From an uncultured Vampirovibrionales bacterium (lineage in GTDB: Bacteria; Cyanobacteriota; Vampirovibrionia; Vampirovibrionales; Vampirovibrionaceae), in NCBI GenBank assembly GCA_964390635.1, contig CAYMIG010000001.1:203321-267320 (forward strand): DNA of 64,000 bases, read 5' to 3'. Shown here one piece after another: positions 1-31,129 of the stretch; position 1 is the first letter of the stretch, and the number at the start of each line of letters is the position of its first letter. Position numbers and translations under genes: made by a program. Below the pieces are notes generated by a model. It was not told the origin of the DNA. It was given only the letters and a program-made list of their open reading frames with translations, and made no database searches.

Positions 1-676
1 CGACGGCAAAGCAAAAGGTCACCTGCTTGCCGTCCATCACCAGCGAGGCGTTCCCGGTCACGGCAAAGCCCGCCGCCGCCAGTTTTTTCTTTTCTCCCTC
101 GATGGAGGTACTGACCAGGGCCAGGCAGGGGAAGCCGCCGTCATCCAGGCGGGGAGGCCGGGCCGGGGCCTCGTCGGCGGGCTCGATAAGCAGGTACAGG
201 GGCGTGGCCTGCAAGGGGGTTTGCAGGCTCAGCCAGGTGCCCGGAAAATTGGGGTACCTGGGTTCGGTGGGCTGGAAACCCAGCAGCCGCCAAAAGGCCA
301 CGGATTCTTCCGGCTTGGGGCTGGCGCAGGCCAGGGTGTCCAGGCGAAAATCGGGGGCTGTGGCCACAACGCGGCCATGCGCGTTGAGGGGCGCAAAGGC
401 CGGCAAGGCGGCGTCGGTTTCAAAGAGCCCTTGCAGAAATCCCGATTGCGAACCGACGTGGCCATGATCCAGCAGCTCAACGGGGTAGCTGCCCGGCTTT
501 TCCATCAGGCAGGCTGCATGCAAGGGCTGAAAATTCTGCAAAAGCGGCGCTTTCATGGCGGCATTCGCCTTGTCGCGCTCATGGAAAACCTCGCGGTAGC
601 CCAGCGCCCGGAAGTGCTCTTTCTCTGCGTCGATGTCCGTCGCGCTCCAGGCGACGTGATCCGCCTTGATGATCAT
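1..676 (-). CDS. VOC family protein (glyoxalase/bleomycin-resistance/extradiol-dioxygenase fold), 5-prime partial at window edge
   Basis: Manual minus-strand translation from ATG at 676 gives MIIKADHVAWSATDIDAEKEHFRALGYREVFHERDKANAAMKAPLLQNF..., a typical two-module VOC pattern. It stays open to base 2 (no stop), so the C-terminus lies outside the window. Its start overlaps the stop of the upstream ligase gene (ATGA). It is absent from the ORF track because no stop codon is in the window. Confidence 0.5.
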   Translation of the reverse strand, partial: MIIKADHVAWSATDIDAEKEHFRALGYREVFHERDKANAAMKAPLLQNFQPLHAACLMEKPGSYPVELLDHGHVGSQSGFLQGLFETDAALPAFAPLNAHGRVVATAPDFRLDTLACASPKPEESVAFWRLLGFQPTEPRYPNFPGTWLSLQTPLQATPLYLLIEPADEAPARPPRLDDGGFPCLALVSTSIEGEKKKLAAAGFAVTGNASLVMDGKQVTFCFAV

Positions 677-2181
677 GGCAGGGCTGATTGCCGGCTTAGG
701 GCTTGCAAGGCTGGCTTGTCAATCTTCCCGTTGCTGTTCTTGGGCAGGCTTTCCATGGGCATAAAAACATCAATCTTATAGTCGGCGCCCAGTTGCTGGG
801 TCAGGGCCAGGTTCAGCCGCTTCTCGAAATGGCGTGGGTCGTCCAGGCTTCCGCTTACGTAGGCGCAGGCGGTTTTTTCGCCCATCACCTCGTCCGGCAG
901 GCCGTAAACCACCAGTTCATCGCTGAACAGTCCGCTGGAAAGCACGAAGTCCTCAATGCGGCGGGGGCTGAGGTTGACCCCGCCCCGGATGATGAGGTCT
1001 TTCTTGCGCCCGGTGATGAACAGCCGCCCTTGCTCATCCAGCCGTCCCAGGTCGCCTGAGCGGTAGCGGCCCTCCGAGAAGTATGTTTCCGTCTGGTGGT
1101 TCAGGTAGCCCTTGAACATCCAGGGCACGTCCAGCAGGATTTCGCCGTCCTCATCCAGCCTCATGTTCACGCCGGGCAGCAGGCGGCCCACGCTGTTTTC
1201 CGCATGCGGGTGCAGGGGAGCATTGGAGGCGTTGAACAGGGTTTCGGAAAGCCCGTAGCTCTCGTAGAGCGGCAGGTTGTAGCGGGCTTCGAAGCGTTGC
1301 TTCTGGGCTTCGCTAAGGGGGGCGGTGCCCACGCAGCCCACAATCGGGGTTTGGCTGGCGTAATTCACCCCCGCTTCCCCCCGATCCAGCTTCAGCAGCA
1401 ACGAAACGATGGTGGGATTGAACCAGAAGGCGTTGGCCCCGTAGCGAATAGGCTGCTCCCAGAATCGGCTGACCCCACCAATGCTGAACCGCTCGCCCAG
1501 GATGACCTGGCTGCCGGCCAGAAACGGCAGCAGCATCAGGTTGAGGATGCCTGCCATGTAGCTCATGGGCAGGTTGTGGTAGAACCGATGGCTGGGCTGG
1601 AAGTCGAAAAAGGCGTTGAAGGCCAGTGCCGAGCCCGCCAGGTTCGAGAAACTATGACAGACCCCCTTGGGCAGGCCGGTGGAGCCCGACGTGAAGGTGA
1701 TAAGGCTGACCCGATCGAGGTCGGCGGCCAGCCAGGTTTGCCTGAAATCTTGCCAGGGGAGCGTCTGGGCGGGTTCGTCCAGGGCGGCCAGCAGCCGCTG
1801 GGGATTGATGCGGGGCGCATTGCCGCAAACGCCCACGCTTTCCACCATGGCGTCGGCTTCAAACAGCGACATGATGTCGGCAATGCCTTGCTCGCCCTTT
1901 TGGGGATCGATGGGCACGTAGGTCCAGCCGTTCAGCACGCAGGCGAAATACAAAACCGGCATTAGCAGGCTGTTGGGCAGGATGACGGCCAGCCGGGCAT
2001 CCGGTTTCAATCCCGCTTCCCGCAGGATGCGGCTGCACACCTCCACCCGGTGGAAAAATTCAGCCGTGGTCAGTGGTGCCGGGCGGCTCGGGTCAATAAT
2101 AAAGTCGGCATCCCAGCGCCGTTCCAGCAGCCCTTCAAGGCTGGGCGGTGTAAGTGGGTTCTTTGAAGGAGGAGAGGGCAT
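673..2181 (-). CDS. AMP-dependent synthetase/ligase (adenylate-forming enzyme, acyl-CoA synthetase-like)
   Basis: 502-aa ORF with the adenylation core motif TSGSTGLPKGV, plus YGxSE and GDL-like downstream motifs. The start is uncertain; the annotated ATG overlaps the 3-prime end of the upstream aldolase gene by 47 nt. Confidence 0.75.
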   Translation of the reverse strand: MPSPPSKNPLTPPSLEGLLERRWDADFIIDPSRPAPLTTAEFFHRVEVCSRILREAGLKPDARLAVILPNSLLMPVLYFACVLNGWTYVPIDPQKGEQGIADIMSLFEADAMVESVGVCGNAPRINPQRLLAALDEPAQTLPWQDFRQTWLAADLDRVSLITFTSGSTGLPKGVCHSFSNLAGSALAFNAFFDFQPSHRFYHNLPMSYMAGILNLMLLPFLAGSQVILGERFSIGGVSRFWEQPIRYGANAFWFNPTIVSLLLKLDRGEAGVNYASQTPIVGCVGTAPLSEAQKQRFEARYNLPLYESYGLSETLFNASNAPLHPHAENSVGRLLPGVNMRLDEDGEILLDVPWMFKGYLNHQTETYFSEGRYRSGDLGRLDEQGRLFITGRKKDLIIRGGVNLSPRRIEDFVLSSGLFSDELVVYGLPDEVMGEKTACAYVSGSLDDPRHFEKRLNLALTQQLGADYKIDVFMPMESLPKNSNGKIDKPALQALSRQSALP

Positions 2182-3229
2182 CCTGTTCCTTGCCTATGTA
2201 ACTGCCAAAATTGTATTCGCCGAGATACAGGTCGGGATTCTTCTCCAGCCGCTGGGCAATGGCCTCCAGTACATCGGGTTTGACGTCCACCTTGTCCACC
2301 TTGCATAGCTCGATGATGAGCAGCTCCGGGCTGACGCGGTATTTGGCCGAAAATTTCTGGATGTGGTGCATGTAGCTGGAGTGGAAGTCCGCAAAGCCGG
2401 CGACGATATCCAGGGATTCCTTGCCCTTCAGCTTGACCAGGGGCTTGATGAACTTCTTGCCGATTTCCATCACCTTGAGCAGGTTGATGTTCAGGGGAAC
2501 GCCTTTTTTGAGGAGCGCGGCCACCACCAGCTCGGTGGAGGCATTGCCGGCGCTGCGGCCCAGCCCTTGCAGGGAGGTGTCAATCAGCTCGATGCCAAGA
2601 TCTGCGGCGTACAGGGCGTTCGATACGGCAAGCCCTAAGTTGTCATGGCCGTGGAAGCCCACCTTCAGCTCGCTCACCTCGCGGATGGCGTTGAAATAGG
2701 CTTCAATCTGGTGCGGGAACATGCCCCCCGATGAATCCACGATGTACACGCCGTCCACGCCATAAGACTCCGACAGCTTGACCTGCTTGGCAAAGTCCTT
2801 GGGCGCCATGGCATACGACTTCATGTAGTTGGCCATCACGGTCATGCCGTAACCCTTGGCCTTCTCAATGAAGGGGCGCGAGCTTTCCACGCGGGTCACG
2901 TCGGTTCCCACGCGGATGAATTTCATGCCGTATTGCGCGGCCATGTCCAGGTCTTCCAGGCGGGCGATGCCCGGAATGCAGAACATACCCCACTGGGCCT
3001 TCTCTATGGCCCCGGCAGCGGCCATGATGTATTCCTCATCGGTGTGGATGGCCTCGCCATGCCCCATGTTGCTGCCGTTGAAACCGACCCCGTGGCCGAT
3101 TTCGATCCATTCCACGCCCGCAGCCTCCAGCTCCTTGCAGATGACCGCCGTATCAGAGGTGGTAAACGAGAAGTTGACGGCGTAACTGCCGTCACGAAGG
3201 GTGGTATCGAGAATCTGGATGGGAGGCAT
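2135..3229 (-). CDS. HMGL-like (DRE-TIM metallolyase) aldolase, 4-hydroxy-2-oxovalerate aldolase (DmpG/BphI/MhpE)-like
   Basis: 364 aa. N-terminal ILDTTLRDGSYAVNFSF...EIGHGVG matches the pyruvate carboxyltransferase/HMGL-like domain of DmpG-type aldolases. No DmpF-type acetaldehyde dehydrogenase partner is adjacent. Confidence 0.7.
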   Translation of the reverse strand: MPPIQILDTTLRDGSYAVNFSFTTSDTAVICKELEAAGVEWIEIGHGVGFNGSNMGHGEAIHTDEEYIMAAAGAIEKAQWGMFCIPGIARLEDLDMAAQYGMKFIRVGTDVTRVESSRPFIEKAKGYGMTVMANYMKSYAMAPKDFAKQVKLSESYGVDGVYIVDSSGGMFPHQIEAYFNAIREVSELKVGFHGHDNLGLAVSNALYAADLGIELIDTSLQGLGRSAGNASTELVVAALLKKGVPLNINLLKVMEIGKKFIKPLVKLKGKESLDIVAGFADFHSSYMHHIQKFSAKYRVSPELLIIELCKVDKVDVKPDVLEAIAQRLEKNPDLYLGEYNFGSYIGKEQDALSSFKEPTYTAQP

Positions 3230-3382: not shown

Positions 3383-4078
3383 CTATTTTTTCCGGCAGAC
3401 CACCAGGTGCCAGTGGTAATCGTAGCCGAAGCACTCGTCATGCACGGAGCCGAAGGTGAACTCCCCAAAGTGGCTGGCGAAGGTGCGCTCAATGTCCGCC
3501 TCGTCCTCGAACATGCGCAGCACTTCGCCGTTGCGCACGTTGAAGGGGTCGTTCTTGATGATCTGGTAGCCGGGCTTCAGCGTTTCGCTGCCCTGGTAGA
3601 TGAAGCAGGTCTTCTTGGGGATGGACATGACCAGGTGGCCGCCCGGCTTGGTGATGCGGGCGAATTCCGCCACGTGGCGATCGAAGTTTCGGTCGGCGCC
3701 CAGGTAGTAGCAGGAATTCCAGGACAGCAGGAAGTCGAAGGTGTTGTCCGCAAAGGGTGTTGTGTCGTTGGTGCCCACTTGCAGGTCGAACTTGGGGGCG
3801 CCCAGCATAGCCAGGTTCTGGCGGGCCTTTTCCACGATGGGCTCGCTTACTTCCACGCCGTAAATATCGAAGCCTAGCGTGCTGAGGAAGTGCAGGTTCA
3901 CCCCGTCGCCGCAGCCGATATCGCAGATCTTCTTGCCCTCGTAGCCCAGATCGCGCAGGTTGAGCCGGGGGTAGGCCCCCTTGAACATGCGAATGACGTA
4001 TTCCGCGGGGTAGGTGAGGTCTTTGTAAGACAGGTACTCCCGGGTCCATTCCTTCTGGAAGTCATAGGTGGTGGTCAT
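3383..4078 (-). CDS. class I SAM-dependent methyltransferase
   Basis: Motif I ICDIGCGDGVNL plus acidic motif II region. The start was chosen at the internal ATG (MTTTYDFQKEW), confirmed as CAT at 4076-4078 on the plus strand. The upstream 50 codons of the ORF look like non-coding read-through. Confidence 0.7.
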   Translation of the reverse strand: MTTTYDFQKEWTREYLSYKDLTYPAEYVIRMFKGAYPRLNLRDLGYEGKKICDIGCGDGVNLHFLSTLGFDIYGVEVSEPIVEKARQNLAMLGAPKFDLQVGTNDTTPFADNTFDFLLSWNSCYYLGADRNFDRHVAEFARITKPGGHLVMSIPKKTCFIYQGSETLKPGYQIIKNDPFNVRNGEVLRMFEDEADIERTFASHFGEFTFGSVHDECFGYDYHWHLVVCRKK

Positions 4079-4305
4079 GCTGTACTCCTTGCCAGTGGCA
4101 CGTGGCCTACTATACTGTGAAGGCGGCATGCAGGCCAGCCTTTTTTTCAGGCGGAATTCCCAGCAGCTTGCTGTCGCCGGCCTTTGGGCGAGCCTTGCCA
4201 CGGACGCGCCCGCTGCCCTCCCCGGTCGCATACGGGACCGTTATACAAACGCCTGTTTTTCAGTTACAATTTCTGGCATTCCCAAAGACCCCGGAGACCC
4301 TTGCA
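4079..4305. promoter_or_regulatory. divergent intergenic/promoter region between the methyltransferase operon (minus) and the pseA-hisHF operon (plus)
   Basis: 227-bp non-coding gap between two divergently transcribed gene sets. GGAGA Shine-Dalgarno 8 nt upstream of the ATG at 4306. Confidence 0.3.
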
Positions 4306-5510
4306 TGCAGGAACTGGAGCGCTGCAGCCGCTGTACCGTCCCACTGACGTGGGAAACCATTTACCTGGACGAGAACGGGGTTTGCAACGTTTGCAACAAC
4401 TGGAGCACCAAGCAGCACAAGATTGACTGGGAGGCTCGCGAGCGTCAGCTTCTGGCCATCTTCGAGGATGTGAAGGCAAAAAAAGCCGATTACGATTGCA
4501 TTCTGCCCTTTAGTGGCGGGAAAGACTCTACTTATACGCTGTATGCCATTGTCAAAAAGTACGGCCTGCGCCCTCTGGTGGTGTCCTTCGACCACGGATT
4601 CTACCGCCCCAAGATGCTGGCCAACCGCACCCGGGTCATCCGCCGCCTGGGCGTGGACATGATCACCATGACGCCCGACTGGCAGGTGGTTAAAAAAATG
4701 ATGGTGGAGGCCCTCATCCGGCGTGGCGACTTCTGTTGGCACTGCCACAACGGTGTGTTTGCCTATCCCATGCAGATGGCCGTCAAGCTGAAGGTGCCGC
4801 TGGTCATCTGGGGCGAAGGTGGCGGCGAGTACGAAGGCTACTTCAAGTTCGAGGACCTGGAAGACACCGACGAGTGGAAGTTCAACCGCCGCATCGTGCA
4901 AGGCATTCGGGCCGTCGATATGGCCGGCTTCATCGGCGAGGACGTCCGCAAGCTGCAGCCTTACATCTATCCCAGCCGCCAGGAGCTGGAGGAGGCCGGC
5001 GTTAAGAGCATCCCGCTGGGCAAGTTCATCCCCTGGGACGTGAAAAAGCAGGTGGAAATCATCCGCCAGGAGCTGGGCTGGGAGCTGGATGAAATCGAAA
5101 GCGGCTTCCCCGGGCCTACTTACGAGAAGATCGAGTGCATGTTCCAGGGCGTGCGCGATTATGCCAAGTACCTCAAGCGGGGTTTCTCCCGCATCACGCA
5201 TCTTACCTCGCTGGATATCCGCCATGGGCGCATGGATCGCGACGAAGCCATGCGCCACATCGAGCAACTGGAGCACCGCAAGCCCAAAAGCCTTTCGGTA
5301 TTCCTGGAATATACCGGCCTGAGCGAGGCGGAGTTCAACGAAATCATCCTGCAGCACGTCATTGCCCCGGCCCAGCCCATCGACCCCGCCACCATCCCCG
5401 AGGGCGAGGCCCTGCCGGATCAGGATCTGTGGTTCCGGGATCCCGCCGATGCCGGTTGCGGTACCTGCCATAGCAACGGCTGCGGCGGCGCGCTCCCGCT
5501 GGAAGTCTGA
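4306..5510 (+). CDS. pseA: N-acetyl sugar amidotransferase (PP-loop ATP pyrophosphatase; PseA/WbuX/LfnA family) for acetamidino-sugar formation
   Basis: PP-loop motif ILPFSGGKDST; N-terminal Cys-rich segment (CSRCTVPLTW...CNVCNNW) typical of this family. Followed immediately by HisH/HisF paralogs as in WbuXYZ-type modules. The start was moved to the ATG at 4306 with an SD. Confidence 0.75.
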
Positions 5511-5539: not shown

Positions 5540-6907
5540 ATGTCCCCCACCCAAACGCAAGCCAAGTCCGCCACCCGTACCTCCATGCTGGAGCTGCTCC
5601 GGAAGATTTACGGGTTTCGCTGGGCGCCCGTCTCCGAGGAAACCGATTGGGGCAACGCGGTGCTGTGCCAGGAGTTGCCTTTCCAGGTGCATGAATACCC
5701 TTCGGGCTTGGAATTCAACGGCTGGGTGGTTCCGCAGAAGTGGAAACCCGTGAAAGCCGAAATCTGGAAGGACGGCGAGCTGATTTACGACGGCATGCAA
5801 AGCCCCCTGGGCGTGGTGGGCTATGCCGATTCTTTCAACGGCAAAGTCAGTGGCCGGGAGCTGAAAGAGCACCTCTGTTACCATCCCAACTTCCCCAATG
5901 CGCTGATTTACCACTGCGACTACTACTATAAACCCTGGCGGCGTACCTGGGGGATGAGCGTGACCCACAACTTCTTCAAAACCATTGAGGATGACGCGGA
6001 ATACGAGGTCAACCTGCAGACCGTGTTTGAGGACGGCACCCTCAAGGTGCTTGACTACTACCTGCCAGGCGAATCCGAGGAGACCATTATCCTTAACAGC
6101 CACAATTGCCATACCGGCCAGGCCAATGATGATATCGCCGGCGTGGTAGTGGGTGTGGAAGTGCTGCGTCGACTGGCCGAAAAGCCCAAGCGCCGCTACA
6201 GCTACCGGCTTATTGTGACCGCCGAGCACATCGGCACGGTGTTTTACCTGCATAGCCTGACGCCGGAGCAGATTGGCAAGTTCAAATACGGCATGTTCCT
6301 TGAAATGCTGGGCAACAAGAACCGTTTCGCCTTCCAGGAGTCGTTTACCGGCACCAGCGATCTGGATCGGGCCGTGCACAACTACATGCGCTATCACCAC
6401 GCCGACTATCACAGCGATCGCTTCCGCAAGATCATCGGCAACGACGAGACCGTGTGGGAAGCCCCCGGCTACGAGATTCCCTGTATCTCGCTTTCCCGCT
6501 GGCCGTACCTCGAATACCACTCCAGCATGGACACCGACGACATCATCCACGAGGAAATGCTGGAGGAGGCCACCAACGCGGTGCTGGGCTACCTGGAAAT
6601 CCTGGAAACCAACGCCGTGATGCACCGCCACTTTGACGGGCTGGTGTGCCTCAGCAATCCCAAGTACGATTTGTACGTCTCGCCGGGCGATCCCAGCATC
6701 AACCCGATGGTGCCCGAGGAGCAGCACCGCTGGAACTACCTGATGAACTGCATTACCCGCCATTTTGACGGGCGCACCACCATTCTGGACATTGCCGAAA
6801 AATACGACCAAAACTACTTTAACGTGCTGGAGTATGTGCGCAAGTTCGAGGAAAAGGGCCTGGTCACCATCGAACCCGCCCTGCCGCCCCGGGAGGCCAG
6901 CCGATGA
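5540..6907 (+). CDS. M28-peptidase-fold / DUF4910-like domain protein found in polysaccharide loci
   Basis: 455 aa. Central segment NCHTGQANDDIAGVVVGVEVLRRL resembles the M28 aminopeptidase-like metal-site region of DUF4910 proteins. C-terminal ~80 aa look like a winged-helix. Family call is from memory and motif only. Confidence 0.4.
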   Translation: MSPTQTQAKSATRTSMLELLRKIYGFRWAPVSEETDWGNAVLCQELPFQVHEYPSGLEFNGWVVPQKWKPVKAEIWKDGELIYDGMQSPLGVVGYADSFNGKVSGRELKEHLCYHPNFPNALIYHCDYYYKPWRRTWGMSVTHNFFKTIEDDAEYEVNLQTVFEDGTLKVLDYYLPGESEETIILNSHNCHTGQANDDIAGVVVGVEVLRRLAEKPKRRYSYRLIVTAEHIGTVFYLHSLTPEQIGKFKYGMFLEMLGNKNRFAFQESFTGTSDLDRAVHNYMRYHHADYHSDRFRKIIGNDETVWEAPGYEIPCISLSRWPYLEYHSSMDTDDIIHEEMLEEATNAVLGYLEILETNAVMHRHFDGLVCLSNPKYDLYVSPGDPSINPMVPEEQHRWNYLMNCITRHFDGRTTILDIAEKYDQNYFNVLEYVRKFEEKGLVTIEPALPPREASR

Positions 6908-8907: not shown

Positions 8908-8912
8908 GGCAT

Positions 8913-15982: not shown

Positions 15983-16579
15983 TCACACGGTTTCCGCCGC
16001 AGCGGGCTCCTTGCGGTAGTTCAGGATGCGTGCGGGCACCCCGCCCACCACGGCATAGGGGGGAACGTCCTTGTTCACCACGGCGCCGGCAGCAATCACC
16101 GCCCCGTCGCCTACTTTTACGCCGTCCAGAATAGTCACGTGGCTGCCAATCCACACGTCTCGGCCAATTTCCACGCCCAGTTCCGAGAGGCCCTGGTCTT
16201 TGATGGGCCGATCCGGGTCGGCGAAGATGTGGTTGGCGGGGATAATGACCACCCCGTAGGCGATGGCGGTGTTGTCGCCGATGGTCAGGCCACCGTTGCC
16301 ACAGATGACCGAAAAGTGGTGTATCGAAACCCTCCGCCCGATGCGGATGGGGCCGCCCTTGGCAAGCAACTGCACGTAATCGCCAATGTGGGTGTCCTCG
16401 CCAAGCTCGATACTCCCCGGTGAGCGGGCCGACAGCGTGGCCTTGCCGGAAATATAGGTGGTCTTGCCCCAGCGCACGTTGCCATGCTCCTCGAACCACC
16501 AGAGCTTCCAGCGGTGTTTCAGCTTGTACCACCGGGGCAGGAAGCCTTTGAGAAACCATTTGTAGCGGCGAAGCTTCAT
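15983..16579 (-). CDS. left-handed beta-helix (hexapeptide repeat) acetyltransferase, WcaF/maltose O-acetyltransferase-like
   Basis: Repeated [LIV]-G-x-x-x-x hexapeptides, e.g. [49 protein letters not shown]. Confidence 0.8.
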
Positions 16580-22181: not shown

Positions 22182-23348
<1,167 letters not shown>

Positions 23349-23358: not shown

Positions 23359-24510
23359 GTGATTCCCTACGGAAGGCAGAATATCAGCGAGGCGGATATC
23401 CAGGCGGTTGTCGATGTGCTGCGCTCCGATTTCATCACCCAGGGGCCGGCTATCGAGCGTTTCGAGAAATCGGTGGCTGCCTACTGCGGAGTGAAATACG
23501 CGGTGGCAGTCAGTAATGCCACGGCGGGTTTGCATATTGCCTGTCTGGCTGCCGGGCTGAAAGCCGGGGAGTGGCTTTGGACCGTGCCCAACACGTTTGT
23601 GGCTTCCGCCAACTGCGCCCTGTATTGCGGGGCGAATGTCGATTTCGTGGACATTGACCCTCAAACCTACACTATCAGCCTGGACGCCCTCCACCTCAAG
23701 CTGGAAACTACCCCGCCGCAAAAGCGGCCCCGCGTTGTGGTGCCCGTACACTTTGCCGGGCAGTCCTGCGATATGATCGCAATCCAGGATCTGGCCGAGC
23801 AATACGGCTTTACCGTGTTGGAAGACGCTGCCCATGCCATTGGGGGGCGCTATGATGGTGAACCGATTGGCTGTTGCCGTTACTCCGATATGGCGGTGCT
23901 CAGCTATCACCCGGTTAAAATCATTACCACGGGCGAGGGTGGAATGGTTCTGACCAACCGGGAAGACCTCTATGAGGCCCTAATTCGGCTTCGAACTCAC
24001 GGAATCACGCGAAATGCCCCGCTTTTGCAGCATAAGGATGAAGGCCCCTGGTACTACGAACAGCTGGAGCTGGGCTATAACTACCGCCTGACGGATATTC
24101 AGGCCGCGCTGGGCCATAGCCAGATGGGTCGGCTGGATGCCTTCGTCCTGCGTCGCCGGGAACTGGCCGCCCGTTATGACGATTTGCTCAAGGATTTGCC
24201 GGTGGTTCGCCCCTGGCAGCACCCCAAAACGGAATCCGCCTGGCATTTGTATGTGGTTAAAATCTCCCCCGAGGCAGGCAAGAGCCGCCGGGAGGTTTTT
24301 GAAGCCCTCCGCGCGGCGGGGATTGGCGTTAACGTGCATTACATCCCGGTGCATACCCAGCCCTATTACCGGACCCTTGGATTCAAACCCGGCGATTTCC
24401 CCCAGTCAGAGGCTTATTATGCGCAGGCCATTACCCTGCCCCTATACTACGACCTCACCGAGACGGAGCAGGATGAGGTAGTATCCGCACTGGCCCGGGC
24501 GCTCCAATGA
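23359..24510 (+). CDS. pseC: UDP-4-amino-4,6-dideoxy-N-acetyl-beta-L-altrosamine transaminase (DegT/DnrJ/EryC1 family)
   Basis: VIPYGRQNISEADIQAV... start typical of PseC, with a GTG start. A PLP-lysine region (SYHPVKIITTGEGG) is present. Confidence 0.8.
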   Translation: MIPYGRQNISEADIQAVVDVLRSDFITQGPAIERFEKSVAAYCGVKYAVAVSNATAGLHIACLAAGLKAGEWLWTVPNTFVASANCALYCGANVDFVDIDPQTYTISLDALHLKLETTPPQKRPRVVVPVHFAGQSCDMIAIQDLAEQYGFTVLEDAAHAIGGRYDGEPIGCCRYSDMAVLSYHPVKIITTGEGGMVLTNREDLYEALIRLRTHGITRNAPLLQHKDEGPWYYEQLELGYNYRLTDIQAALGHSQMGRLDAFVLRRRELAARYDDLLKDLPVVRPWQHPKTESAWHLYVVKISPEAGKSRREVFEALRAAGIGVNVHYIPVHTQPYYRTLGFKPGDFPQSEAYYAQAITLPLYYDLTETEQDEVVSALARALQ

Positions 24511-25370
24511 AGCTTGGCCTGGGAACCGTACAGTTCGGCCTGGATTACGGCATTACCAACCCACAAGGCCAGGTTCCACCGGATGAAGTGGGGGAAATTT
24601 TGCGGTTGGCCGCCCAGGCGGGGATCGATCTGCTGGATACCGCCGCGCAATACGGTGAAAGCGAGTCTGTGCTTGGCCAGGCCATCCCTTCGGGCGCACC
24701 GTTCCGGATTGTCACCAAGACGCCTTCCTTCAACACTGCCGCGATTACCTCTGTACAGGTAGAGGCGATGGAAACCACCCTGGCACAATCGCTGCAGCGG
24801 TTGAACCACGCCGCCGTCTATGGCTGGCTACTGCATCAGGTGGATGATCTCTTTTCTGATGGTGGGGACAGGCTGCTGGATGCGCTTTATGGTGCCAGGG
24901 ACAATGGACAGGTGGAGAAAATCGGGGTGTCTGTTTATACCGGAGCCCAGATTGACCGGGTCTTGCAGATTTTCACCCCGGATATCGTCCAGCTTCCCAT
25001 CAACCTGCTGGATCAGCGCCTGATTCACAGCGGTCACCTGGCGCGTCTCAAGTCGCTGGGTGTGGAAATACACGCGCGTTCGTTGTTTCTCCAGGGCGTG
25101 TTGCTGAACCCCTCCGAAGCGCCTGCCTGGATGGGCGACGCCTTGGATGCCTACGCTGCCTGGCTTGCCCGGGAAACGATCCCCCCCCTGCAAGCCGCGC
25201 TAAGCTTTGCCGCCGGACTTCCTGAAATTGATGTGGCCCTGGTGGGTGTTTGCTCCCGGGCCCAGTTGCGGGAGATTCTGGATGCATTTCAGCGGATTGG
25301 GCGGTATGATTTTAGTCGGTTCGCCTGTGCCGACGAGCGGGTTGTGAATCCCGCCCTCTGGCCCCGCTGA
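24507..25370 (+). CDS. aldo/keto reductase family oxidoreductase
   Basis: MKLGLGTVQFGLDYG...IDLLDTAAQYG is an AKR N-terminal signature. ATGA overlap with pseC. Confidence 0.7.
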   Translation: MKLGLGTVQFGLDYGITNPQGQVPPDEVGEILRLAAQAGIDLLDTAAQYGESESVLGQAIPSGAPFRIVTKTPSFNTAAITSVQVEAMETTLAQSLQRLNHAAVYGWLLHQVDDLFSDGGDRLLDALYGARDNGQVEKIGVSVYTGAQIDRVLQIFTPDIVQLPINLLDQRLIHSGHLARLKSLGVEIHARSLFLQGVLLNPSEAPAWMGDALDAYAAWLARETIPPLQAALSFAAGLPEIDVALVGVCSRAQLREILDAFQRIGRYDFSRFACADERVVNPALWPR

Positions 25371-25394: not shown

Positions 25395-26717
25395 TTGGAA
25401 TCCACCGCCCAGACCCTTGATGCCGAACTAAGCGCCCGTTACCACGGCTCCGAAGCTTGGCTGGCGCGGGCGCTCCAGACCATCCCGCTGGGTAGCCAGA
25501 CTTTCAGCAAGAGCCTGACGCAGTATCCCCGGGGCGTCTCGCCGTATTTCATCCAGCGCGGCCAGGGCAGCCGGGTGTGGGACGTGGACGGCAACGAGTA
25601 CGTGGATTTTGTCAACAGCCTGCTTTCCATTTCCTTGGGCTACAACGATCCCGACGTCAAAGACGCCGTGCAGCGCCAGCTTGAGGAGGGAACCATCTTC
25701 TCCCTGCCGCATCCCGTGGAGGTGTTGGTGGCCGAAAAAATGACCGCCATGGTGCCTTGTGCGGAGATGGTTCGCTTTGGCAAGAACGGCTCGGACGCCA
25801 CCTCGGGCGCCATTCGGCTGGCCCGCGCCTATACGGGTCGCGACCACGTGGCGGTTTGCGGTTACCATGGATGGCAGGATTGGTATATCGGTTCGACGGC
25901 GCGACATCGAGGGGTGCCGCAGGCGGTGCGGGACTTGACCCACACGTTCATGTACAACGATATTGACTCGCTGCATCGTCTCTTCCGGGAGTATCCCGAC
26001 CAGATTGCCGCCGTAATTCTGGAGCCGATGAATACCACGGAGCCGAAGGACGGCTTTCTGGGGGAAGTACAGACCCTGTGCAGGCAGCATGGCGCGCTGC
26101 TGGTGTTTGATGAAACCATTACTGGCTTCCGTTTTTCCAGGGGCGGCGCGCAACAGTTGTTCGGCATCACGCCGGATTTGGCCACCTTCGGCAAGGGTAT
26201 GGCCAACGGCTACCCCATTGCCGTGATAGCGGGCCGCGCCGACGTGATGCGGCTGATGGAAGAAATCTTTTTCTCGTTCACGTTTGGTGGGGAAACGCTT
26301 TCGCTGGCCGCATCGCTGGCCGTGATGGAGAAGCTGGAGCGCGAGCCGGTGCTGGAAACCATCCATCGCCAGGGCCGCAAACTCATCGACGGGCTGCGGG
26401 CGCTGATTGGCCAACATGGGCTGGAAAGCTTTCTCTCCGTGGCCGGACATCCCAGCTGGTCGTTCTTTCTCATCCAGGATAGCCCGGCTTATACCGCCTG
26501 GCAGCTGAAAACCCTCTACCTGCAAGAAATGTACCGCCGCGGCATTCTGACCATCGGCACCCACAACATCAGCTACGCGCACAGCGATGCCGATATCGAG
26601 CGCCTGCTGGGGGCCTACGGGGAAATCCTGCCGATGCTCCAGGACGTGACCGAAAACCGCTCGCTGTCGAAATACCTGCACACCCAGCCGCTGGAACCCC
26701 TCTTCAAGGTTCGTTAA
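25395..26717 (+). CDS. class-III PLP aminotransferase, glutamate-1-semialdehyde 2,1-aminomutase (HemL)-like
   Basis: GSA-AM-like pattern ...SQTFSKS...GSRVWDVDGNEYVDF...FGKNGSDATSGAIRLAR...LVFDETITGFR...TFGKGMANGYP. TTG start codon preceded by AGGAGG. Confidence 0.7.
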   Translation: MESTAQTLDAELSARYHGSEAWLARALQTIPLGSQTFSKSLTQYPRGVSPYFIQRGQGSRVWDVDGNEYVDFVNSLLSISLGYNDPDVKDAVQRQLEEGTIFSLPHPVEVLVAEKMTAMVPCAEMVRFGKNGSDATSGAIRLARAYTGRDHVAVCGYHGWQDWYIGSTARHRGVPQAVRDLTHTFMYNDIDSLHRLFREYPDQIAAVILEPMNTTEPKDGFLGEVQTLCRQHGALLVFDETITGFRFSRGGAQQLFGITPDLATFGKGMANGYPIAVIAGRADVMRLMEEIFFSFTFGGETLSLAASLAVMEKLEREPVLETIHRQGRKLIDGLRALIGQHGLESFLSVAGHPSWSFFLIQDSPAYTAWQLKTLYLQEMYRRGILTIGTHNISYAHSDADIERLLGAYGEILPMLQDVTENRSLSKYLHTQPLEPLFKVR

Positions 26718-26780: not shown

Positions 26781-28193
26781 ATGCTCTTCAACTCATTTGT
26801 ATTTCTGGTTTTCGCGGCGGTTTTCTACTTGCTGTGGCCGTTGTTTCGGCAGCGGTCGAACCGTCGGTGGGCGTTTCTCAGCATTGCCTCGTTCATTTTC
26901 TACGGCTGGTGGGACTGGCGCTTTCTTTTCCTGCTGATGGCCATCGGCCTGCTCGATTTCCTGGGCGCGCTGGGCATTCAACGCTTCCCTCGCTTCCGCA
27001 AGGGGTTCCTGTTTGGCTCGTTGGGCGCCAACCTGGGGGTACTGTTCCTGTTCAAGTACCTCGGATTTTTCCTGGAAAACACCAGCTCGCTGGCCTCCAT
27101 GCTGGGCCTGGAGGTTCATTTCGAGGTGGCGCCGATGCTTTTGCCCCTGGGCATCAGCTTTTATACCTTCGAATCCATGAGTTACGTCATCGAAGTCTAC
27201 AAAGGGGAACTGAAACCTACCCGTAACCTGCTGCATTATTTCGCTTTCCTGTCGCTGTTCCCGCACCTGATTGCCGGCCCCATCATCCGGGCCGCCGATT
27301 TGCTGCCCCAGCTTGAGACATGGCGAAAGCCTGACGAGGCCGGGCGATGGGAAGCCCTTCGGCTGGTGGCTTTTGGCTTTTTCAAGAAGGTTGCGCTGGC
27401 CGATAACCTGGCCCCGGCGGTGAATACGGCGTTTGGGAGCGCGGGCATAGAGCCCTCCATGCCTTACTGGTGGGTGATTATGGGTATGTTCGCCTTCCAA
27501 ATCTACTGCGACTTCAGCGGCTACAGCGATATTGCGCGCGGCCTGGCGCGGTGGATGGGTTATCAGCTCCCCCTGAATTTCGATCACCCCTATACCGCCA
27601 CCAGTTTCCGGGATTTCTGGCGGCGCTGGCATATCTCGCTCTCCACCTGGTTTCGCGACTACGTTTACATTCCCCTGGGCGGATCGCGGGGCGGCTTGTA
27701 CGCGGGCATCCTGGCTATGTCGGCCACCATGCTCATTTCCGGCTTCTGGCACGGGGCGGCATGGACGTTTGTGGCCTGGGGCGGCCTGCATGCCCTCTAT
27801 TTGGCAGTGGAGCGCCTGACTGACTGGCCCAGGCGCCTTGCGGCCATTCCGGGCGGGGTACATCTGGGGGCCTTGCTGGTTCTGGGGCAGGTGTGGATTG
27901 CCTGGGTATTTTTCAGGGCGACCTCCTGGGCGCAGGCGACGGGCATTGTGGGGGAAATGCTCAATTTCTCCCACGGGTCGCTGGAACCCCTGATGGCTTA
28001 CCGCAAGACGGCCATCCCCTTCCTCCTGCTGGCCATTGGTATTGAACTGTTCTTTTATCTGGGGCTCCATCGCCTGGACTGGAGCCGAACCCGCTGGCTG
28101 GCCTATGCCGAAGCTGCCGCTGTGGTGCTGATGCTGGTGTTATCCGTTTACTCGCGCGGCCCCGGCGGGGCTTTCATCTACTTTCAATTCTGA
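26781..28193 (+). CDS. MBOAT family membrane O-acyltransferase (AlgI/DltB-like)
   Basis: 470 aa, polytopic. The conserved-His region FWRRWHISLSTWFRDYVYIPLGG matches the MBOAT signature. Confidence 0.85.
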   Translation: MLFNSFVFLVFAAVFYLLWPLFRQRSNRRWAFLSIASFIFYGWWDWRFLFLLMAIGLLDFLGALGIQRFPRFRKGFLFGSLGANLGVLFLFKYLGFFLENTSSLASMLGLEVHFEVAPMLLPLGISFYTFESMSYVIEVYKGELKPTRNLLHYFAFLSLFPHLIAGPIIRAADLLPQLETWRKPDEAGRWEALRLVAFGFFKKVALADNLAPAVNTAFGSAGIEPSMPYWWVIMGMFAFQIYCDFSGYSDIARGLARWMGYQLPLNFDHPYTATSFRDFWRRWHISLSTWFRDYVYIPLGGSRGGLYAGILAMSATMLISGFWHGAAWTFVAWGGLHALYLAVERLTDWPRRLAAIPGGVHLGALLVLGQVWIAWVFFRATSWAQATGIVGEMLNFSHGSLEPLMAYRKTAIPFLLLAIGIELFFYLGLHRLDWSRTRWLAYAEAAAVVLMLVLSVYSRGPGGAFIYFQF

Positions 28194-28199: not shown

Positions 28200-29117
28200 A
28201 TGAGCCGTTCCCACCTGACCCTGCTCATTGCCCTTTTGCTGATTGGCTTGCTGGCCTGGGTGCGGCCTTCTTCCCCTGAAACGGGGCTCTCTCCGGCCAG
28301 CTTCTGGACCCGCAAAATGCTGTGGGAAAAAGAATTCGACGTGGTCCTGGCGGGCGATTCCCGGACTTATCGTGGCCTCTCTCCGGGGGAAATGCGCCGT
28401 GTCTTTGGGGGGTATCGTATCGCCAACTTCGGTTTCAGCGCCTGCGGTTTTGGCAAGCATTACCTGGAGCGCCTGCCCCGGCTTTTTGATCCGGACAGCC
28501 CACAAAAAATCCTGGTGATGGGCATTACGCCCAATTCCCTGACCGAAAAATCGGCGGAACGCGACAACAGCTTTCTGGCCCGCCTGCATGACAACCGCCT
28601 GGAGCAGTATGCCAACCTGTGGTTCGGCGATATTTTAAAGCCCTTTGAGCCTTACAACTACCGTGAGCTTCGCAACGCGCTTAAAAATCGCCGCCAGGGA
28701 TACTTTCAGCACTATCACGAAGACGGCTGGGTGGCCTCTTACAAGCTACCCGAAGATCCCAATGACGCCCTGGATGAATATCGCAAAAACTGGAGCGAGC
28801 AGAAAGTCTCGCGGCGGGTGGAGGACGAGCTTCTCGCCTTCGTGCGAAAGCTCACGGCTTCCGGCATCCGGGTTTACGGCTTCCAGCCTCCCACTACCCG
28901 GGCCATGCATCAGCTGGAATCGGCCATGAGCGGGTTTGACCAGCCGGCATTTCGCCGCCGGTTTGAAGCGGCTGGCGGTACCTGGCTTGACTTCCCACTG
29001 GAGCGCTATCCCTCTTACGACGGCAGCCACTTGCGCCGGGATGGGGCGGTGCTGCTGTCGCGCGATCTGGCCAACGCCATCCTGAAAGAGCGTTCGGTGC
29101 AGGTGTCCAGTCGTTAA
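28200..29117 (+). CDS. SGNH/GDSL-type partner of MBOAT (AlgJ/AlgX/DltD-like), membrane-anchored
   Basis: N-terminal signal anchor LTLLIALLLIGLLAW, then VLAGDSRTY (a GDS-like block), directly downstream of the MBOAT gene. Confidence 0.55.
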   Translation: MSRSHLTLLIALLLIGLLAWVRPSSPETGLSPASFWTRKMLWEKEFDVVLAGDSRTYRGLSPGEMRRVFGGYRIANFGFSACGFGKHYLERLPRLFDPDSPQKILVMGITPNSLTEKSAERDNSFLARLHDNRLEQYANLWFGDILKPFEPYNYRELRNALKNRRQGYFQHYHEDGWVASYKLPEDPNDALDEYRKNWSEQKVSRRVEDELLAFVRKLTASGIRVYGFQPPTTRAMHQLESAMSGFDQPAFRRRFEAAGGTWLDFPLERYPSYDGSHLRRDGAVLLSRDLANAILKERSVQVSSR

Positions 29118-29174: not shown

Positions 29175-30887
29175 TTAATCGGCGCGTTCCAGAAGCAGCA
29201 TTAACGGCCCCGGATACCGACGCTTGCCGGCCTCATGTCCCTTGATGCTTTCCGTCAGGGCGGCAAAACCCTGCGTCTGCTGGATGGCCATCAGGCTGTC
29301 CTCGTTCAGCGACAATGGATGGGTGGCAAACAGCTTGCGCCAGCGGTAGTGTTGCTGCACATAGTCGTAATAGTCCTGGCCATACTGCATTTTATAGATC
29401 CCATTCCGGCGTTTGCCTTTCAGTTCCATTAAAATATACCGGGGGCGGATGTCGGCAATCTGAATGGTGTCCATTTGCCCGCCTGCATGGGGCACAATGC
29501 GGAAATGATCCCCTTGCCAGTCCCCGGTGGTGACGGATGAGCGGTAGTGGTGCGGATCGAGCGGCACGGTGTCCGGTTCCGAAAAAAAGCGGTCACCGGG
29601 ACGGGCCGTTTCCCGGAGGGCTTCCCAGGCGATATTGCGGGTGTCCGGCTGGGTGAAAACCTGGACATGTTCTAGGCTCTCGGCCATGGTGGGGAAGGCC
29701 GTCCCTGCCACCAGGGCGAAAAAAATCCAGCCGGCGGCGGAGTCCTTCCAGCAAAAGCGCCCAGCCAGCCTGAAGGCCAGCATTTCCAGAAAAGCGGCGG
29801 CTGCAAGATACAGAAATGGGTACACCGGCAGCAGATACTTGGCGTTGACCAGTTGAAACTGGCAGACCACCAGCAGAAACAAAAGGGGAAAGCTGAAAAG
29901 AATGCATGCTGCTGCCCGCCGGCGGCGGATTTCCAGGGCCAGGCCGGTTAGGCCGAGCGCATAGAGGGGCCATCCCACGGCCCGGGGAGCGATTTTCCCA
30001 AAAATTTTGCCAAAAGAGGCCATCAGTTGAACCCCTTCCCTGGTAGCGCCCGTGTTTCGGTACAGCATGTGGCGGCGCTCCACGTCCAGGTGTTGGTAAA
30101 ACGTCAGGAAATTCTTAAAAATCATCGGGTTCAGGGCTAAAAAGACGACGGGCACCAGCGGAAGAGATAACCACAGCCTGGAATCCTTCAGGGCCAATTT
30201 CCACGGGTAGTCCTTGAGCGGTTTTCCCTGGCCGTGCCTGAAAAAATGGGCAACGGGCAGAAAAACACCCGTAAACACGTTGTACTTAAACGAAACGGTC
30301 AGCGCAATGGCCGCCGCACACAGAAAATAATCCCTTCTTGAGCCCCGCTCGTACACGTCCAGTGCCAGCCACGCGCTCAGCAAAATGCAGAACAGCGAGG
30401 GGATATCCGAAATGACAATGGCCGAGATGCGTAGGTGGGTGGTGTCCACGGCTAGGAAAAAGGCGGCTGCCAGTCCCACGGCGGGCGAAAACACCCGTGC
30501 GCCCAGCCGGTACAGCAAACCGATGCTGCCCATGGCCAGAACCACGCTGACGGTTCGCCCCACGATGGCTACCAGGGTAGGATCCTGCCAGAAGGCATCC
30601 ACATAACCCTTCCAGCTTAAAAACGGGCTGAAAAGATAAGCAAGCCAGTAGAACGCGGCATAAAAATACAGGAAAAAGCTGGGCTTCTTGAAGTAATCCA
30701 GGGCCCATTCCCCCAGCCCAAAGCGCAGGGCGTGGTCGTAGTATATGGGTTCATCCTCATGTAGCAGCAGGGGCAGGCCATATGGAATCAGCATAAGCCT
30801 CAGAAACACTCCCAGAAGCAAAATTGCCAGGAGTACGATCCGTATCCCGGCGGCTGGCTTGCGAAATTGGGGAAGAATGGGGGGCAT
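29175..30887 (-). CDS. GT-C fold glycosyltransferase, family 39/83-like (PMT/ArnT-like)
   Basis: 570 aa. ~11 predicted TM helices, with N-terminal ...LLHEDEPIYYDHALRFGLG... resembling the DE-containing first periplasmic loop of PMT/ArnT enzymes, and a large C-terminal soluble domain. The start was set at the internal ATG 30887 (CAT on plus). Confidence 0.55.
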   Translation of the reverse strand: MPPILPQFRKPAAGIRIVLLAILLLGVFLRLMLIPYGLPLLLHEDEPIYYDHALRFGLGEWALDYFKKPSFFLYFYAAFYWLAYLFSPFLSWKGYVDAFWQDPTLVAIVGRTVSVVLAMGSIGLLYRLGARVFSPAVGLAAAFFLAVDTTHLRISAIVISDIPSLFCILLSAWLALDVYERGSRRDYFLCAAAIALTVSFKYNVFTGVFLPVAHFFRHGQGKPLKDYPWKLALKDSRLWLSLPLVPVVFLALNPMIFKNFLTFYQHLDVERRHMLYRNTGATREGVQLMASFGKIFGKIAPRAVGWPLYALGLTGLALEIRRRRAAACILFSFPLLFLLVVCQFQLVNAKYLLPVYPFLYLAAAAFLEMLAFRLAGRFCWKDSAAGWIFFALVAGTAFPTMAESLEHVQVFTQPDTRNIAWEALRETARPGDRFFSEPDTVPLDPHHYRSSVTTGDWQGDHFRIVPHAGGQMDTIQIADIRPRYILMELKGKRRNGIYKMQYGQDYYDYVQQHYRWRKLFATHPLSLNEDSLMAIQQTQGFAALTESIKGHEAGKRRYPGPLMLLLERAD

Positions 30888-31129
30888 CTGGTATTTCCGG
30901 GGATTTTGATCCACTATTCTTTGGGCAGTGTACCACGCCCGCCCGGGGCGTGGATCCGCCCCTTCTCGCGGGAAACCCTCACCTGTCAAGCTTGCCGTAA
31001 GCGGCTGGCACCCGGTATTGATATTGGTACGCAAACATTGACCTTTATTTTCCTTGCTGATACGCTAACCTACGATAGACTGGATTCCCCGCTGTCTTGT
31101 GTAATGGAACCTCACCATCGAGCGGAACA

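Follow-up and report, generated by a model that had tools for sequence, protein, structure and literature searches.

The closest described systems for decorating proteins or glycans with pseudaminic acid (Pse), a nonulosonic acid, are those of Campylobacter, Acinetobacter and Legionella. In the Campylobacter jejuni flagellin glycosylation locus, genes Cj1314c-Cj1316c encode a PseA amidotransferase adjoining HisH/HisF paralogs. A further Campylobacter protein, Cj1295, alters the N-acyl group of flagellin Pse (PMC3068675). In Acinetobacter baumannii, KpsS1 is a characterised retaining Pse5Ac7Ac transferase and the founder of family GT118 (PMC12887879), and KpsS1/Gtr59-type genes sit beside nonulosonic-acid modules in both capsule and O-antigen units (PMC4487303). 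The O-antigen cluster of Legionella pneumophila Sg6/Sg12 (lp6_749-lp6_782) is listed with a GNAT, PseG, glutamate-1-semialdehyde (GSA) aminomutase, a cytidylyltransferase, an acetyltransferase, HisF, HisH and a lipopolysaccharide (LPS) biosynthesis protein, together with an aldo/keto reductase (AKR), DegT, CapD, a 'capsule polysaccharide biosynthesis protein', NeuB, a methyltransferase, an aminopeptidase, Wzm/Wzt and WecA (PMC3694923). Here we analyse a locus of this kind from an uncultured Vampirovibrionales bacterium. It occupies positions 1-31034 of a 64,000-nucleotide stretch, referred to as the window (assembly GCA_964390635.1, contig CAYMIG010000001.1, positions 203,321 to 267,320), and a first-pass annotation had described it as an exceptionally elaborate CMP-Pse glycan locus.

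The Pse assignment is borne out, whereas two claims were overstated, namely that the locus far exceeds described Pse loci in elaboration and that some of its enzyme combinations are without a described counterpart: Legionella, Campylobacter and a set of recurrent gene cassettes have counterparts, and these cover nearly every tailoring combination. What is distinctive is a carboxylase-like module together with an uncharacterised but widespread variant of the Pse cassette. The truly unusual genes of the locus are those for a protein resembling vitamin K-dependent γ-carboxylase (GGCX) and its DCC1-like neighbour; both, along with an aminopeptidase-like gene, are additions to the earlier gene list (positions in Table 1).

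A pseudaminic acid pathway with a probable substitute for PseF

We assigned genes with Pfam and NCBIfam hidden Markov models (HMMs), and scores throughout are bits against the curated cut-off. PseB, PseC, PseG and PseI all scored above the cut-offs of their equivalog models (Table 1), with PseB aligned over profile positions 2-324 of 324. Competing models fell short: LegC gave PseC only 241 vs 420, NeuB (NeuB_NnaB) gave PseI only 301 vs 400, and no open reading frame (ORF) of the 64 kb window matched a NeuC-type 2-epimerase (Epimerase_2/NeuC) in Pfam or NCBIfam. The core genes are intact and all core HMM alignments are full length, so the locus is not a mosaic of pseudogenes. Because the NeuB-plus-NeuC alternative and the pseudogene mosaic both fail, the Pse reading stands, and the model scores confirm the predicted identity of a pseudaminic-acid, rather than Neu or Leg, nonulosonic-acid glycan locus.

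Enzyme identities here come from HMMs and the chemistry from the established Pse pathway. PseB and PseC would convert UDP-GlcNAc to a 4-amino sugar, a GNAT would acetylate it, PseG would release the free sugar, PseI would condense it with phosphoenolpyruvate, and an SpsF-type cytidylyltransferase would activate the product. Candidates for the acetylation are the GNAT domain fused to the C terminus of PseG and a separate GNAT, which reached 42 and 34 bits on the PseH model (cut-off 93); the fused domain is 27% identical to A. baumannii PsaE/PseH (E 1e-8). Of the fused PseG-PseH annotated previously, the PseG assignment and the fusion to a GNAT hold, and the PseH assignment falls below its model's cut-off.

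The enzyme labelled PseF-like proved instead to be an SpsF-type cytidylyltransferase of the CTP_transf_3 family. It scored 27 vs 206 on the PseF model TIGR03584, aligned with A. baumannii PseF over only 64 residues, and found 6oew ('Cytidylyltransferase', E 1e-35) as its best Protein Data Bank (PDB) match. An enzyme of the same type fills the PseF slot in the recurrent cassette described below, and the PseF step is probably covered by this non-orthologous relative. Two gene fusions lend support to functional links. In the related loci L090/L091 (3562-5208), a CTP_transf_3 cytidylyltransferase is fused to an AKR (548 aa), which connects the cassette's AKR with activation; in the related locus L103 (11101-12876), a NeuB-like synthase is fused to a cytidylyltransferase (591 aa).

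The recurrent cassette consists of PseB-PseC-AKR-SpsF-type cytidylyltransferase-class III aminotransferase-PseG(H)-PseI-KpsS-like and was found in Veillonellaceae, Selenomonas, Desulfatibacillum and Flavobacteriaceae, and without the aminotransferase in Verrucomicrobia. An AKR beside PseC is conserved in nine related loci, and the class III aminotransferase has a 65% identical counterpart in a Veillonellaceae locus (L014). To our knowledge, none of the recurrent cassette loci has been characterised. As a Pse locus, the window adds little: it extends to an uncultured lineage a widespread cassette variant marked by the SpsF-type cytidylyltransferase, AKR and class III aminotransferase, and the nearest relatives of its genes belong to Vampirovibrionales and Melainabacteria.

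A putative KpsS1-like pseudaminyltransferase

The KpsS-like protein has hundreds of homologues, the nearest of which (41-44% identity) lie in metagenome-assembled genomes (MAGs) of Vampirovibrionales and Melainabacteria. We sampled the neighbourhoods of 82 KpsS-like loci from many phyla, with at most 10 kb of flank on each side, and found homologues of the window's PseI in 48, PseB in 43, PseC in 43 and PseG in 27 of them. This co-location is far above chance for a pathway present once per genome.

A true KpsS or KpsC is not indicated, the protein reaching only 31 bits on PF05159 with no NCBIfam match. The earlier label of 'KpsS-like' holds at the level of that Pfam family, but the protein is better read as a nonulosonic-acid transferase of KpsS1 type. 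By family profile it matches KpsC (E 2e-8) and WbbB, both of them retaining Kdo transferases. Our KpsS1-type reference comes from an A. baumannii K locus in which psaA-F and wzx precede its gene, and it has the Y131-E132 motif given for KpsS1. Aligning the family profile to this reference with hhalign gave a probability of 99.15% (E 4e-19, 314 columns), and BLASTP gave 30% identity over 141 aa; Y131-E132 aligned to L116-N117 in the window protein. These matches point to a distant relative of KpsS1 and a putative nonulosonic-acid/Pse transferase, and the locus lends support to the idea that nonulosonic acids of exported glycans are generally transferred by KpsS1-like enzymes. Two A. baumannii 'plasmids' in PLSDB, NZ_CP077849.1 and NZ_CP104448.1 (3.7 and 4.1 Mb), are evidently chromosomes, one of them with a complete K locus; the KpsS1-type reference was taken from such a chromosome.

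The window has a single KpsS-like copy. Elsewhere, two to four tandem KpsS-like paralogs lie near nonulosonic-acid genes and Wzm/Wzt, on a Rhizobium sp. WL3 plasmid (L089, 11548-17397) and in L018, L027 and L038, so those four loci may well encode more than one nonulosonic-acid transferase, each specific for a linkage or acting in polymerisation.

Tailoring genes

WbuX, HisH and the HisF-family protein are encoded in one operon, giving a WbuX-family amidotransferase with adjacent glutaminase and cyclase subunits, the composition of an acetamidino-forming system; the amidotransferase with its own HisH/HisF paralogs had been correctly recognised. Together they would convert an acetamido to an acetamidino group. 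The aminopeptidase-like protein of the same operon matches Cj1295 by family description (PMC3068675) and may remove an N-acetyl group.

For the formyltransferase-like protein, Pfam detected only Formyl_trans_C and not the N-terminal domain. An Asn-His-Asp triad is catalytic in the sugar N-formyltransferase/Fmt family. In a HMMER alignment with Fmt (3tqq), the columns of the catalytic Asn and His hold D112 and M114; because both residues are replaced, formyl transfer is not supported and the annotated activity is doubtful. Two S-adenosylmethionine (SAM) methyltransferases are present, and no third, as had been counted, was found in the locus. The second of them has a 48% identical homologue adjoining the ATP-binding cassette (ABC) gene in a Melainabacteria locus (L007). 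The methyltransferases and the hexapeptide acetyltransferase would contribute further groups.

The AMP-ligase and DmpG-like genes have a parallel in a Pse locus of Grimontia hollisae (L080), where a DmpG-like gene is followed by a 32% identical AMP-ligase homologue beside PseG/PseI and a KpsS-like gene. HMGL-like genes of the glycan loci L080, L092 and L113 match the DmpG-like protein at 46-48% identity. Once an N-acetyl group has been removed, an unusual acyl or amino-acyl group may be made and attached by the DmpG-like aldolase, the VOC protein and the AMP-ligase, possibly with the class III aminotransferase and AKR.

The SGNH-like gene starts 6 nt downstream of the MBOAT gene. Its product had no HMM match in Pfam or NCBIfam, and the proposed SGNH partner of MBOAT is recognisable by an N-terminal hydrophobic membrane anchor and the motifs GDS (52-54) and DxxH (274-277). 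The hexapeptide acetyltransferase, extra GNAT, MBOAT, AKR, GSA-aminomutase-like aminotransferase, AMP-ligase/DmpG/VOC genes and glycosyltransferases (GT) of types GT2, GT4 and GT-C that had been annotated were all found by HMM.

A carboxylase-like membrane protein and its DCC1-like neighbour

A 517-aa protein of the locus had no Pfam match, and a word-index homology search returned only the protein itself. An exhaustive HMMER search found 247 relatives, and 18 of 36 sampled relatives match Pfam HTTM. AlphaFold with the relatives' alignment gave a model with a predicted local distance difference test score (pLDDT) of 92 and a predicted template modelling score (pTM) of 0.91. When the model was compared with the PDB by Foldseek, the top 16 matches were all human vitamin K-dependent γ-carboxylase, with probability 1.0 over ~520 columns. 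By sequence, the family profile matched GGCX with E 4e-11 at an identity of ~15%. In GGCX, K218 is the catalytic base, and the invariant K163 of the motif AG..K.LDP.W aligns with it. The protein combines an HTTM membrane domain, a GGCX fold and a lysine equivalent to K218, as members of the HTTM/γ-carboxylase family do, and is predicted from the model to be a full-length structural homologue of vitamin K γ-carboxylase that has kept the catalytic lysine. The adjoining gene encodes a DCC1-like DxxCxxC protein.

The HTTM/DCC1 pair occurred in none of the 82 KpsS-like loci. Searching metagenomes with a degenerate DNA pattern of the AG..K..DP.W..G.G.Y motif gave 19 loci with HTTM relatives. In every informative context examined, a small and non-random sample and no census, the relative lay in a polysaccharide locus. 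L090/L091 carry DegT, PIG-L, PseB (58%), the cytidylyltransferase-AKR fusion, a short-chain dehydrogenase/reductase, HTTM and a KpsS-like gene. L103, a single-strand operon, holds the NeuB-cytidylyltransferase fusion, GNATs, PIG-L, a PseI-like gene (48%), two GT2s, DegT, HTTM and a DCC1-like gene (76 bits), so that the HTTM and DCC1-like pairing is shared by the window and L103. L092 contains dehydratases, DegT, an AsnB-like gene, HTTM, an amidohydrolase, a methyltransferase, an HMGL-like gene (48% to the window DmpG-like protein), ATP-grasp, a WbmS-like gene and a formyltransferase; L112 contains HTTM, ATP-grasp, a methyltransferase, an amidohydrolase and a PseB-like gene; and L113 contains MBOAT, GT2, a methyltransferase, GT4, DegT, ATP-grasp, an HMGL-like gene (47%), HTTM, methyltransferases, an amidohydrolase, Wzt and Wzm. 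DegT, a hexapeptide transferase, a Wzz-kinase, dehydratases, HTTM, Wzm and Wzt make up L114/L115, and in L100 HTTM is followed by seven GT2 genes. HTTM is often accompanied by HMGL-like, ATP-grasp, Amidohydro_2 and methyltransferase genes; a setting with HMGL-like, ATP-grasp or AMP-ligase, amidohydrolase and methyltransferase genes recurs in L092, L112 and L113, one with nonulosonic-acid and DCC1-like genes in L103, and one with a KpsS-like gene in L090. We considered and rejected the HTTM/DCC1 pair as an unrelated insertion, as HTTM homologues occur elsewhere in glycan loci.

We know of no established function for bacterial HTTM proteins, and a full-text literature search found no papers linking them with polysaccharide loci. 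By analogy with GGCX, the GGCX-like protein, recycled by the DCC1-like oxidoreductase, might be a quinone-dependent enzyme that modifies the exported Pse glycan, rather than a protein, on the outer face of the membrane; we offer this as a speculative and, on present indications, improbable role. In such a scheme a strong base would form in the membrane domain at the expense of reduced quinone and O2, the substrate would sit in the extramembrane domain, and the DCC1-like protein would restore the cofactor. The reaction could be carboxylation of an amino-acyl or hydroxy-acyl substituent supplied by the DmpG-like aldolase, ligase and aminotransferase set, or some other change requiring a strong base. 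Judging by the recurrent HMGL-like, ATP-dependent ligase, amidohydrolase and methyltransferase partners, the enzyme may act on an acyl or amino-acyl group that decorates an amino sugar. If true, the GGCX-like and DCC1-like proteins would make up an accessory module not recognised before in surface-polysaccharide loci of bacteria; bacterial HTTM proteins would gain a testable function through such a link to glycans, which would also point to a new post-export glycan modification. The wider value lies in a vitamin K-carboxylase homologue found repeatedly inside polysaccharide loci with its catalytic lysine conserved.

Export and the nature of the product

The ABC protein, in which a transmembrane domain (TMD) and nucleotide-binding domain (NBD) are fused, has MsbA_lipidA as its best NCBIfam match, and its gene lies 10 nt upstream of the KpsS-like gene. 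Of five Vampirovibrionales loci, three have a fused ABC exporter gene (48-53% identity) beside the one for the KpsS-like protein, a Mariluticola plasmid has a fused ABC gene directly upstream of pseB, and Rhizobium sp. WL3 has Wzm/Wzt with KpsS-like and nonulosonic-acid genes. By gene content, then, the window appears to have a dedicated ABC exporter in an operon with glycosyltransferases. Across all ORFs of the 64 kb, Pfam and NCBIfam revealed no Wzx, Wzy, Wzz, Maf, flagellin, other flagellar or pilin genes, in agreement with the first-pass annotation for Wzx/Wzy/Wzz and flagellin, nor was there an ABC-2 permease, KpsE or KpsD that would indicate KpsMTED. Because ABC genes adjoin KpsS-like genes elsewhere and the window lacks Wzx/Wzy/Wzz, Maf, flagellin and KpsMTED, we favour, with measured confidence, a Pse-containing glycan that would be assembled in the cytoplasm and exported by the ABC protein, either O-antigen-like or capsule-like.

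For such an ABC-exported glycan, the Pse derivative would be added by the KpsS1-like enzyme to a glycan built by GT4 and GT2, and the lipid-linked product would cross the inner membrane through the fused ABC exporter. On the outer face it would be O-acylated by MBOAT and the SGNH-like protein, and the GGCX-like and DCC1-like pair might act on the same exported product.

Several observations weigh against this reconstruction. Both GNATs and the cytidylyltransferase lie under the PseH and PseF equivalog cut-offs, and the window's family lacks a conserved Glu opposite Glu132 of the YE motif, the proposed general base of KpsS1. No initiating phosphoglycosyltransferase of the WecA, WbaP or PglC type was found in the window. 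The exporter is of MsbA/PglK rather than Wzm/Wzt type, and flipping of lipid A-core glycoforms fits it equally well. MBOAT, SGNH-like and GT-C genes are rare or absent in related loci and are only tentatively linked to the glycan, by operon position. The organism is uncultured, and all functions are read from sequence.

The main rival is that Pse would be placed on a lipid A-core glycolipid of lipooligosaccharide (LOS) type at the cytoplasmic face and flipped by the locus's MsbA paralog, with no undecaprenyl-linked polymer. Sialylated LOS is a precedent for decorating a glycolipid before flipping. In its favour, MsbA is the top NCBIfam match of the ABC protein (528 bits), and the window has no initiating phosphoglycosyltransferase, polymerase or chain-length regulator and only two ordinary glycosyltransferases with one KpsS-like gene. 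Against it, the score is under the MsbA cut-off of 602, related KpsS-like loci use Wzm/Wzt and WecA or several KpsS-like paralogs, which suggests polymers, and lipid A/core genes are not nearby. We consider a LOS-type product unlikely.

Slightly less likely still is that the 31 kb comprises two or three neighbouring units, in which a Pse cassette, complete with transferase and exporter, would merely adjoin an MBOAT/SGNH/GT-C unit for envelope modification and an HTTM/DCC1 pair, neither of them related to it. Across the 82 KpsS-like loci, GT-C, SGNH-like, formyltransferase-like, HTTM and DCC1 genes have no homologue and MBOAT has one in 2, and GT-C lies on the opposite strand at the locus edge. 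However, only 63 and 6 nt separate the MBOAT and SGNH-like genes from the gene before each in the run that starts with PseB-PseC-AKR-aminotransferase, DCC1 and HTTM trail GT2-methyltransferase-acetyltransferase with gaps of 5-84 nt, and HTTM homologues lie inside glycan loci elsewhere, with MBOAT and HMGL-like genes in L113 and PseI-like and DCC1-like genes in L103.

An island for O-glycosylation of flagellin, pilin or proteins in general, of the Campylobacter, Aeromonas or Tannerella kind, is the least likely of these readings. The C. jejuni flagellin locus typically has a PseA-type amidotransferase with HisH/HisF as well as a Cj1295-type gene, and the PMT_2-family GT-C could be a protein O-glycosyltransferase, but the 64 kb holds no Maf-type transferase, flagellin or pilin gene. 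An ABC exporter, an MBOAT/SGNH pair and a KpsS1-like GT characterise glycans that are exported, and KpsS1-type enzymes are known from capsule and O-antigen units.

Locus extent and gene content

Positions 1-31034 hold 28 intact, tightly packed genes, all scanned with the Pfam and NCBIfam HMMs, after overlapping ORFs had been resolved by third-position G+C (Table 1). From WbuX to the KpsS-like gene (4305-14020) the genes form a plus-strand operon of WbuX, aminopeptidase-like, HisH, HisF, GNAT, cytidylyltransferase and formyltransferase-like genes, followed after 101 nt by ABC and KpsS-like genes; all other gaps are -8 to 29 nt. A minus-strand operon carries GT2, methyltransferase 2, acetyltransferase, DCC1-like and 517-aa protein genes (gaps 5 to 84 nt), a minus-strand pair encodes the PseG-GNAT fusion and PseI, and a second plus-strand operon contains PseB, PseC, AKR, aminotransferase, MBOAT and SGNH-like genes (gaps -4 to 63 nt). 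GT4 and GT-C are single genes outside operons. At the left edge, a minus-strand operon holds methyltransferase 1, DmpG-like, AMP-ligase and VOC genes and continues past the window.

Table 1 Genes of the pseudaminic acid locus, with window positions; scores are bits, given vs the curated cut-off where two values appear.
Feature	Position	Strand	Evidence
VOC/glyoxalase-fold protein	1..718	-	Pfam Glyoxalase_4 27 bits, at cut-off; 3' end cut by window edge
AMP-dependent (adenylate-forming) ligase	673..2181	-	PF00501 172 bits; under every NCBIfam equivalog cut-off
DmpG/HMGL-like aldolase, subfamily associated with glycan loci	2135..3229	-	NF006049 304 vs 229
SAM methyltransferase 1	3383..4129	-	Methyltransf_11/25; ORF to 4231, likely start 4129 or 4078
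WbuX/PseA-type N-acetyl sugar amidotransferase	4305..5510	+	TIGR03573 339 vs 203; alignment from residue 85 of long ORF
Aminopeptidase-like DUF4910/DUF2172/M28-like, Cj1295 type	5540..6907	+	Pfam 176/56/33 bits
HisH paralog (glutaminase subunit)	6904..7581	+	TIGR01855 200 vs 105
HisF/WbuZ-like cyclase-subunit paralog	7578..8357	+	PF00977 187; WbuZ 234 vs 300; AglZ/HisF2 220
GNAT N-acetyltransferase, second PseH candidate	8350..8907	+	Acetyltransf_3 91 bits; PseH model 34 vs 93
SpsF-type cytidylyltransferase, presumed CMP-Pse synthetase	8913..9728	+	PF02348 108 bits; PseF model 27 vs 206
Formyltransferase-fold protein, degenerate active site	9725..10777	+	only Formyl_trans_C, 50 bits
Fused TMD-NBD ABC exporter (MsbA/PglK/HepA-like)	10879..12666	+	ABC_membrane + ABC_tran; TIGR02203 528 vs 602
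KpsS1-like (GT118/GT107/GT99 superfamily) putative pseudaminyltransferase	12677..14020	+	PF05159 31 bits
Vitamin K-dependent γ-carboxylase-like (HTTM) membrane protein, C-terminal extracytoplasmic domain, 517 aa	14017..15570	-	
DCC1-like thiol-disulfide oxidoreductase	15594..15977	-	PF04134 54 bits; DxxCxxC at residues 8-14
Hexapeptide-repeat acetyltransferase	15983..16579	-	WbbJ/WcaF/Vat-type NCBIfam matches 60-74 bits; gene call in L001
SAM methyltransferase 2	16616..17458	-	Methyltransf_11/12/25
GT2 glycosyltransferase	17543..18514	-	PF00535 118 bits; soluble, no transmembrane segment predicted by hydropathy scan
GT4 glycosyltransferase	18573..19637	+	Glycos_transf_1 / Glyco_trans_1_4
PseI pseudaminic acid synthase	19615..20667	-	TIGR03586 506 vs 340
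PseG hydrolase fused to PseH-like GNAT domain	20664..22181	-	TIGR03590 286 vs 154; GNAT at residues 343-474
PseB inverting 4,6-dehydratase	22359..23348	+	TIGR03589 533 vs 408
PseC aminotransferase	23359..24510	+	TIGR03588 558 vs 424
AKR, cassette member	24507..25370	+	PF00248 105 bits; KidO model 177 vs 244
Class III (GSA-aminomutase-like) aminotransferase, cassette member	25395..26717	+	PF00202 192 bits; PRK06209 440 vs 486
MBOAT membrane O-acyltransferase (DltB/AlgI-like)	26781..28193	+	PF03062 115 bits; DltB model 143 vs 375
Membrane-anchored SGNH-like partner of MBOAT, motifs only	28200..29117	+	GDS 52-54, DxxH 274-277; no HMM match
GT-C glycosyltransferase (PMT_2/ArnT-like)	29175..31034	-	PF13231 40 vs 26; HEDEP at residue 92; at least 7 transmembrane-like segments

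Parts of the locus, with identical proteins, were retrieved from two independent metagenome runs (Logan), which argues against a chimeric assembly. The G+C content is ~60% along the entire window, and a foreign island was rejected, there being no compositional signal for one in the window. Phase variation was also rejected: a single G8 and a single C8 tract occur in the locus, below the number expected from its base composition. No tRNA genes or Rfam families were found in the window. The relatives found for the window's glutamate dehydrogenase are all metagenomic, with identities of at most 67%, and it is the proteins specific to the locus that suggest Vampirovibrionales.

Contig L086 shows that the locus runs past window position 1. 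There the VOC gene is complete (242 aa), and the left-hand operon goes on with a cyclase/formamidase-like gene at L086 3925-4188, immediately outside window position 1, whose product has the HxGTHxDxPxH signature of the cyclase/kynurenine-formamidase family. Because this gene continues the operon, the locus is longer than the window shows. Of the ~31 kb extent given earlier, the right boundary is reasonable, since genes for an electron transfer flavoprotein (ETF) and other housekeeping functions come next, and the left side lies beyond the window. To the right of 31 kb we found ETF, ETF-QO, a solute symporter, Dam, glutamate dehydrogenase, pyruvate kinase and catabolic genes.

In this right-hand part, the Dam-type protein (39721-40563, minus strand) is a D12-class N6-adenine DNA methyltransferase with no restriction partner visible. 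A Gly/Ser/Leu-rich low-complexity protein with a terminal (AP)n repeat (50110-50868, minus strand) and a 421-aa protein (50906-52171, plus strand) had no Pfam match. Positions 52698-58440 carry two adjoining LigB-family (class III extradiol dioxygenase) genes, a RidA/L-PSP protein and an aldehyde dehydrogenase, resembling a 2-aminophenol or protocatechuate-type meta-cleavage set, with two or three ORFs lacking a Pfam match between them (54307-56401). Positions 58448-64000, with PreA/PreT-like dihydropyrimidine dehydrogenase subunits, a cytosine/uracil/allantoin-family permease and a class III aminotransferase, probably form a reductive pyrimidine catabolism cluster.

Comparison with known systems

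By published annotation only, the function set of the L. pneumophila Sg6/Sg12 cluster is nearly identical to that of the window locus, an ABC exporter included. The exporter there is Wzm/Wzt and WecA is present, whereas the window has a fused MsbA-type ABC protein and no initiating transferase; HTTM/DCC1, DmpG/AMP-ligase/VOC, MBOAT/SGNH and GT-C are not listed for Legionella. The Campylobacter flagellin locus shares the Pse pathway and the aminopeptidase-like Cj1295, which is linked to N-acyl exchange (PMC3068675). It differs in its flagellin target, reached via Maf, in having no ABC exporter, KpsS-like GT or MBOAT, and in its phase-variable homopolymer tracts, which are not evident here.

The KL2-type capsule locus of A. 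baumannii (psaA-F and KpsS1, GT118) shares PseB, PseC, PseG and PseI, with 54-58% identity for PseB, PseC and PseI, has a PseH to which the window's candidate is the PseH-like GNAT, and carries a KpsS-family transferase after the Pse genes, which there adds Pse to the repeat unit (PMC4487303, PMC12887879). In contrast to the window, its PseF is canonical, PseG and PseH are not fused, and export is by Wzx/Wzy. Identity between its KpsS1-type protein and that of the window is only 22-30%, and the window protein has not conserved the proposed catalytic YE motif.

The recurrent cassettes share genes and gene order with the window at 32-69% identity, and in the Vampirovibrionales/Melainabacteria MAGs the ABC and KpsS-like pair is conserved as well. 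Unlike those loci, the window has the cassette split, with the cytidylyltransferase in the WbuX operon, and carries the HTTM/DCC1 pair, which is in none of the cassette loci. Finally, whereas GGCX modifies proteins and has VKOR as its partner, its homologue here lies in a bacterial glycan operon and is partnered by a DCC1-like oxidoreductase.

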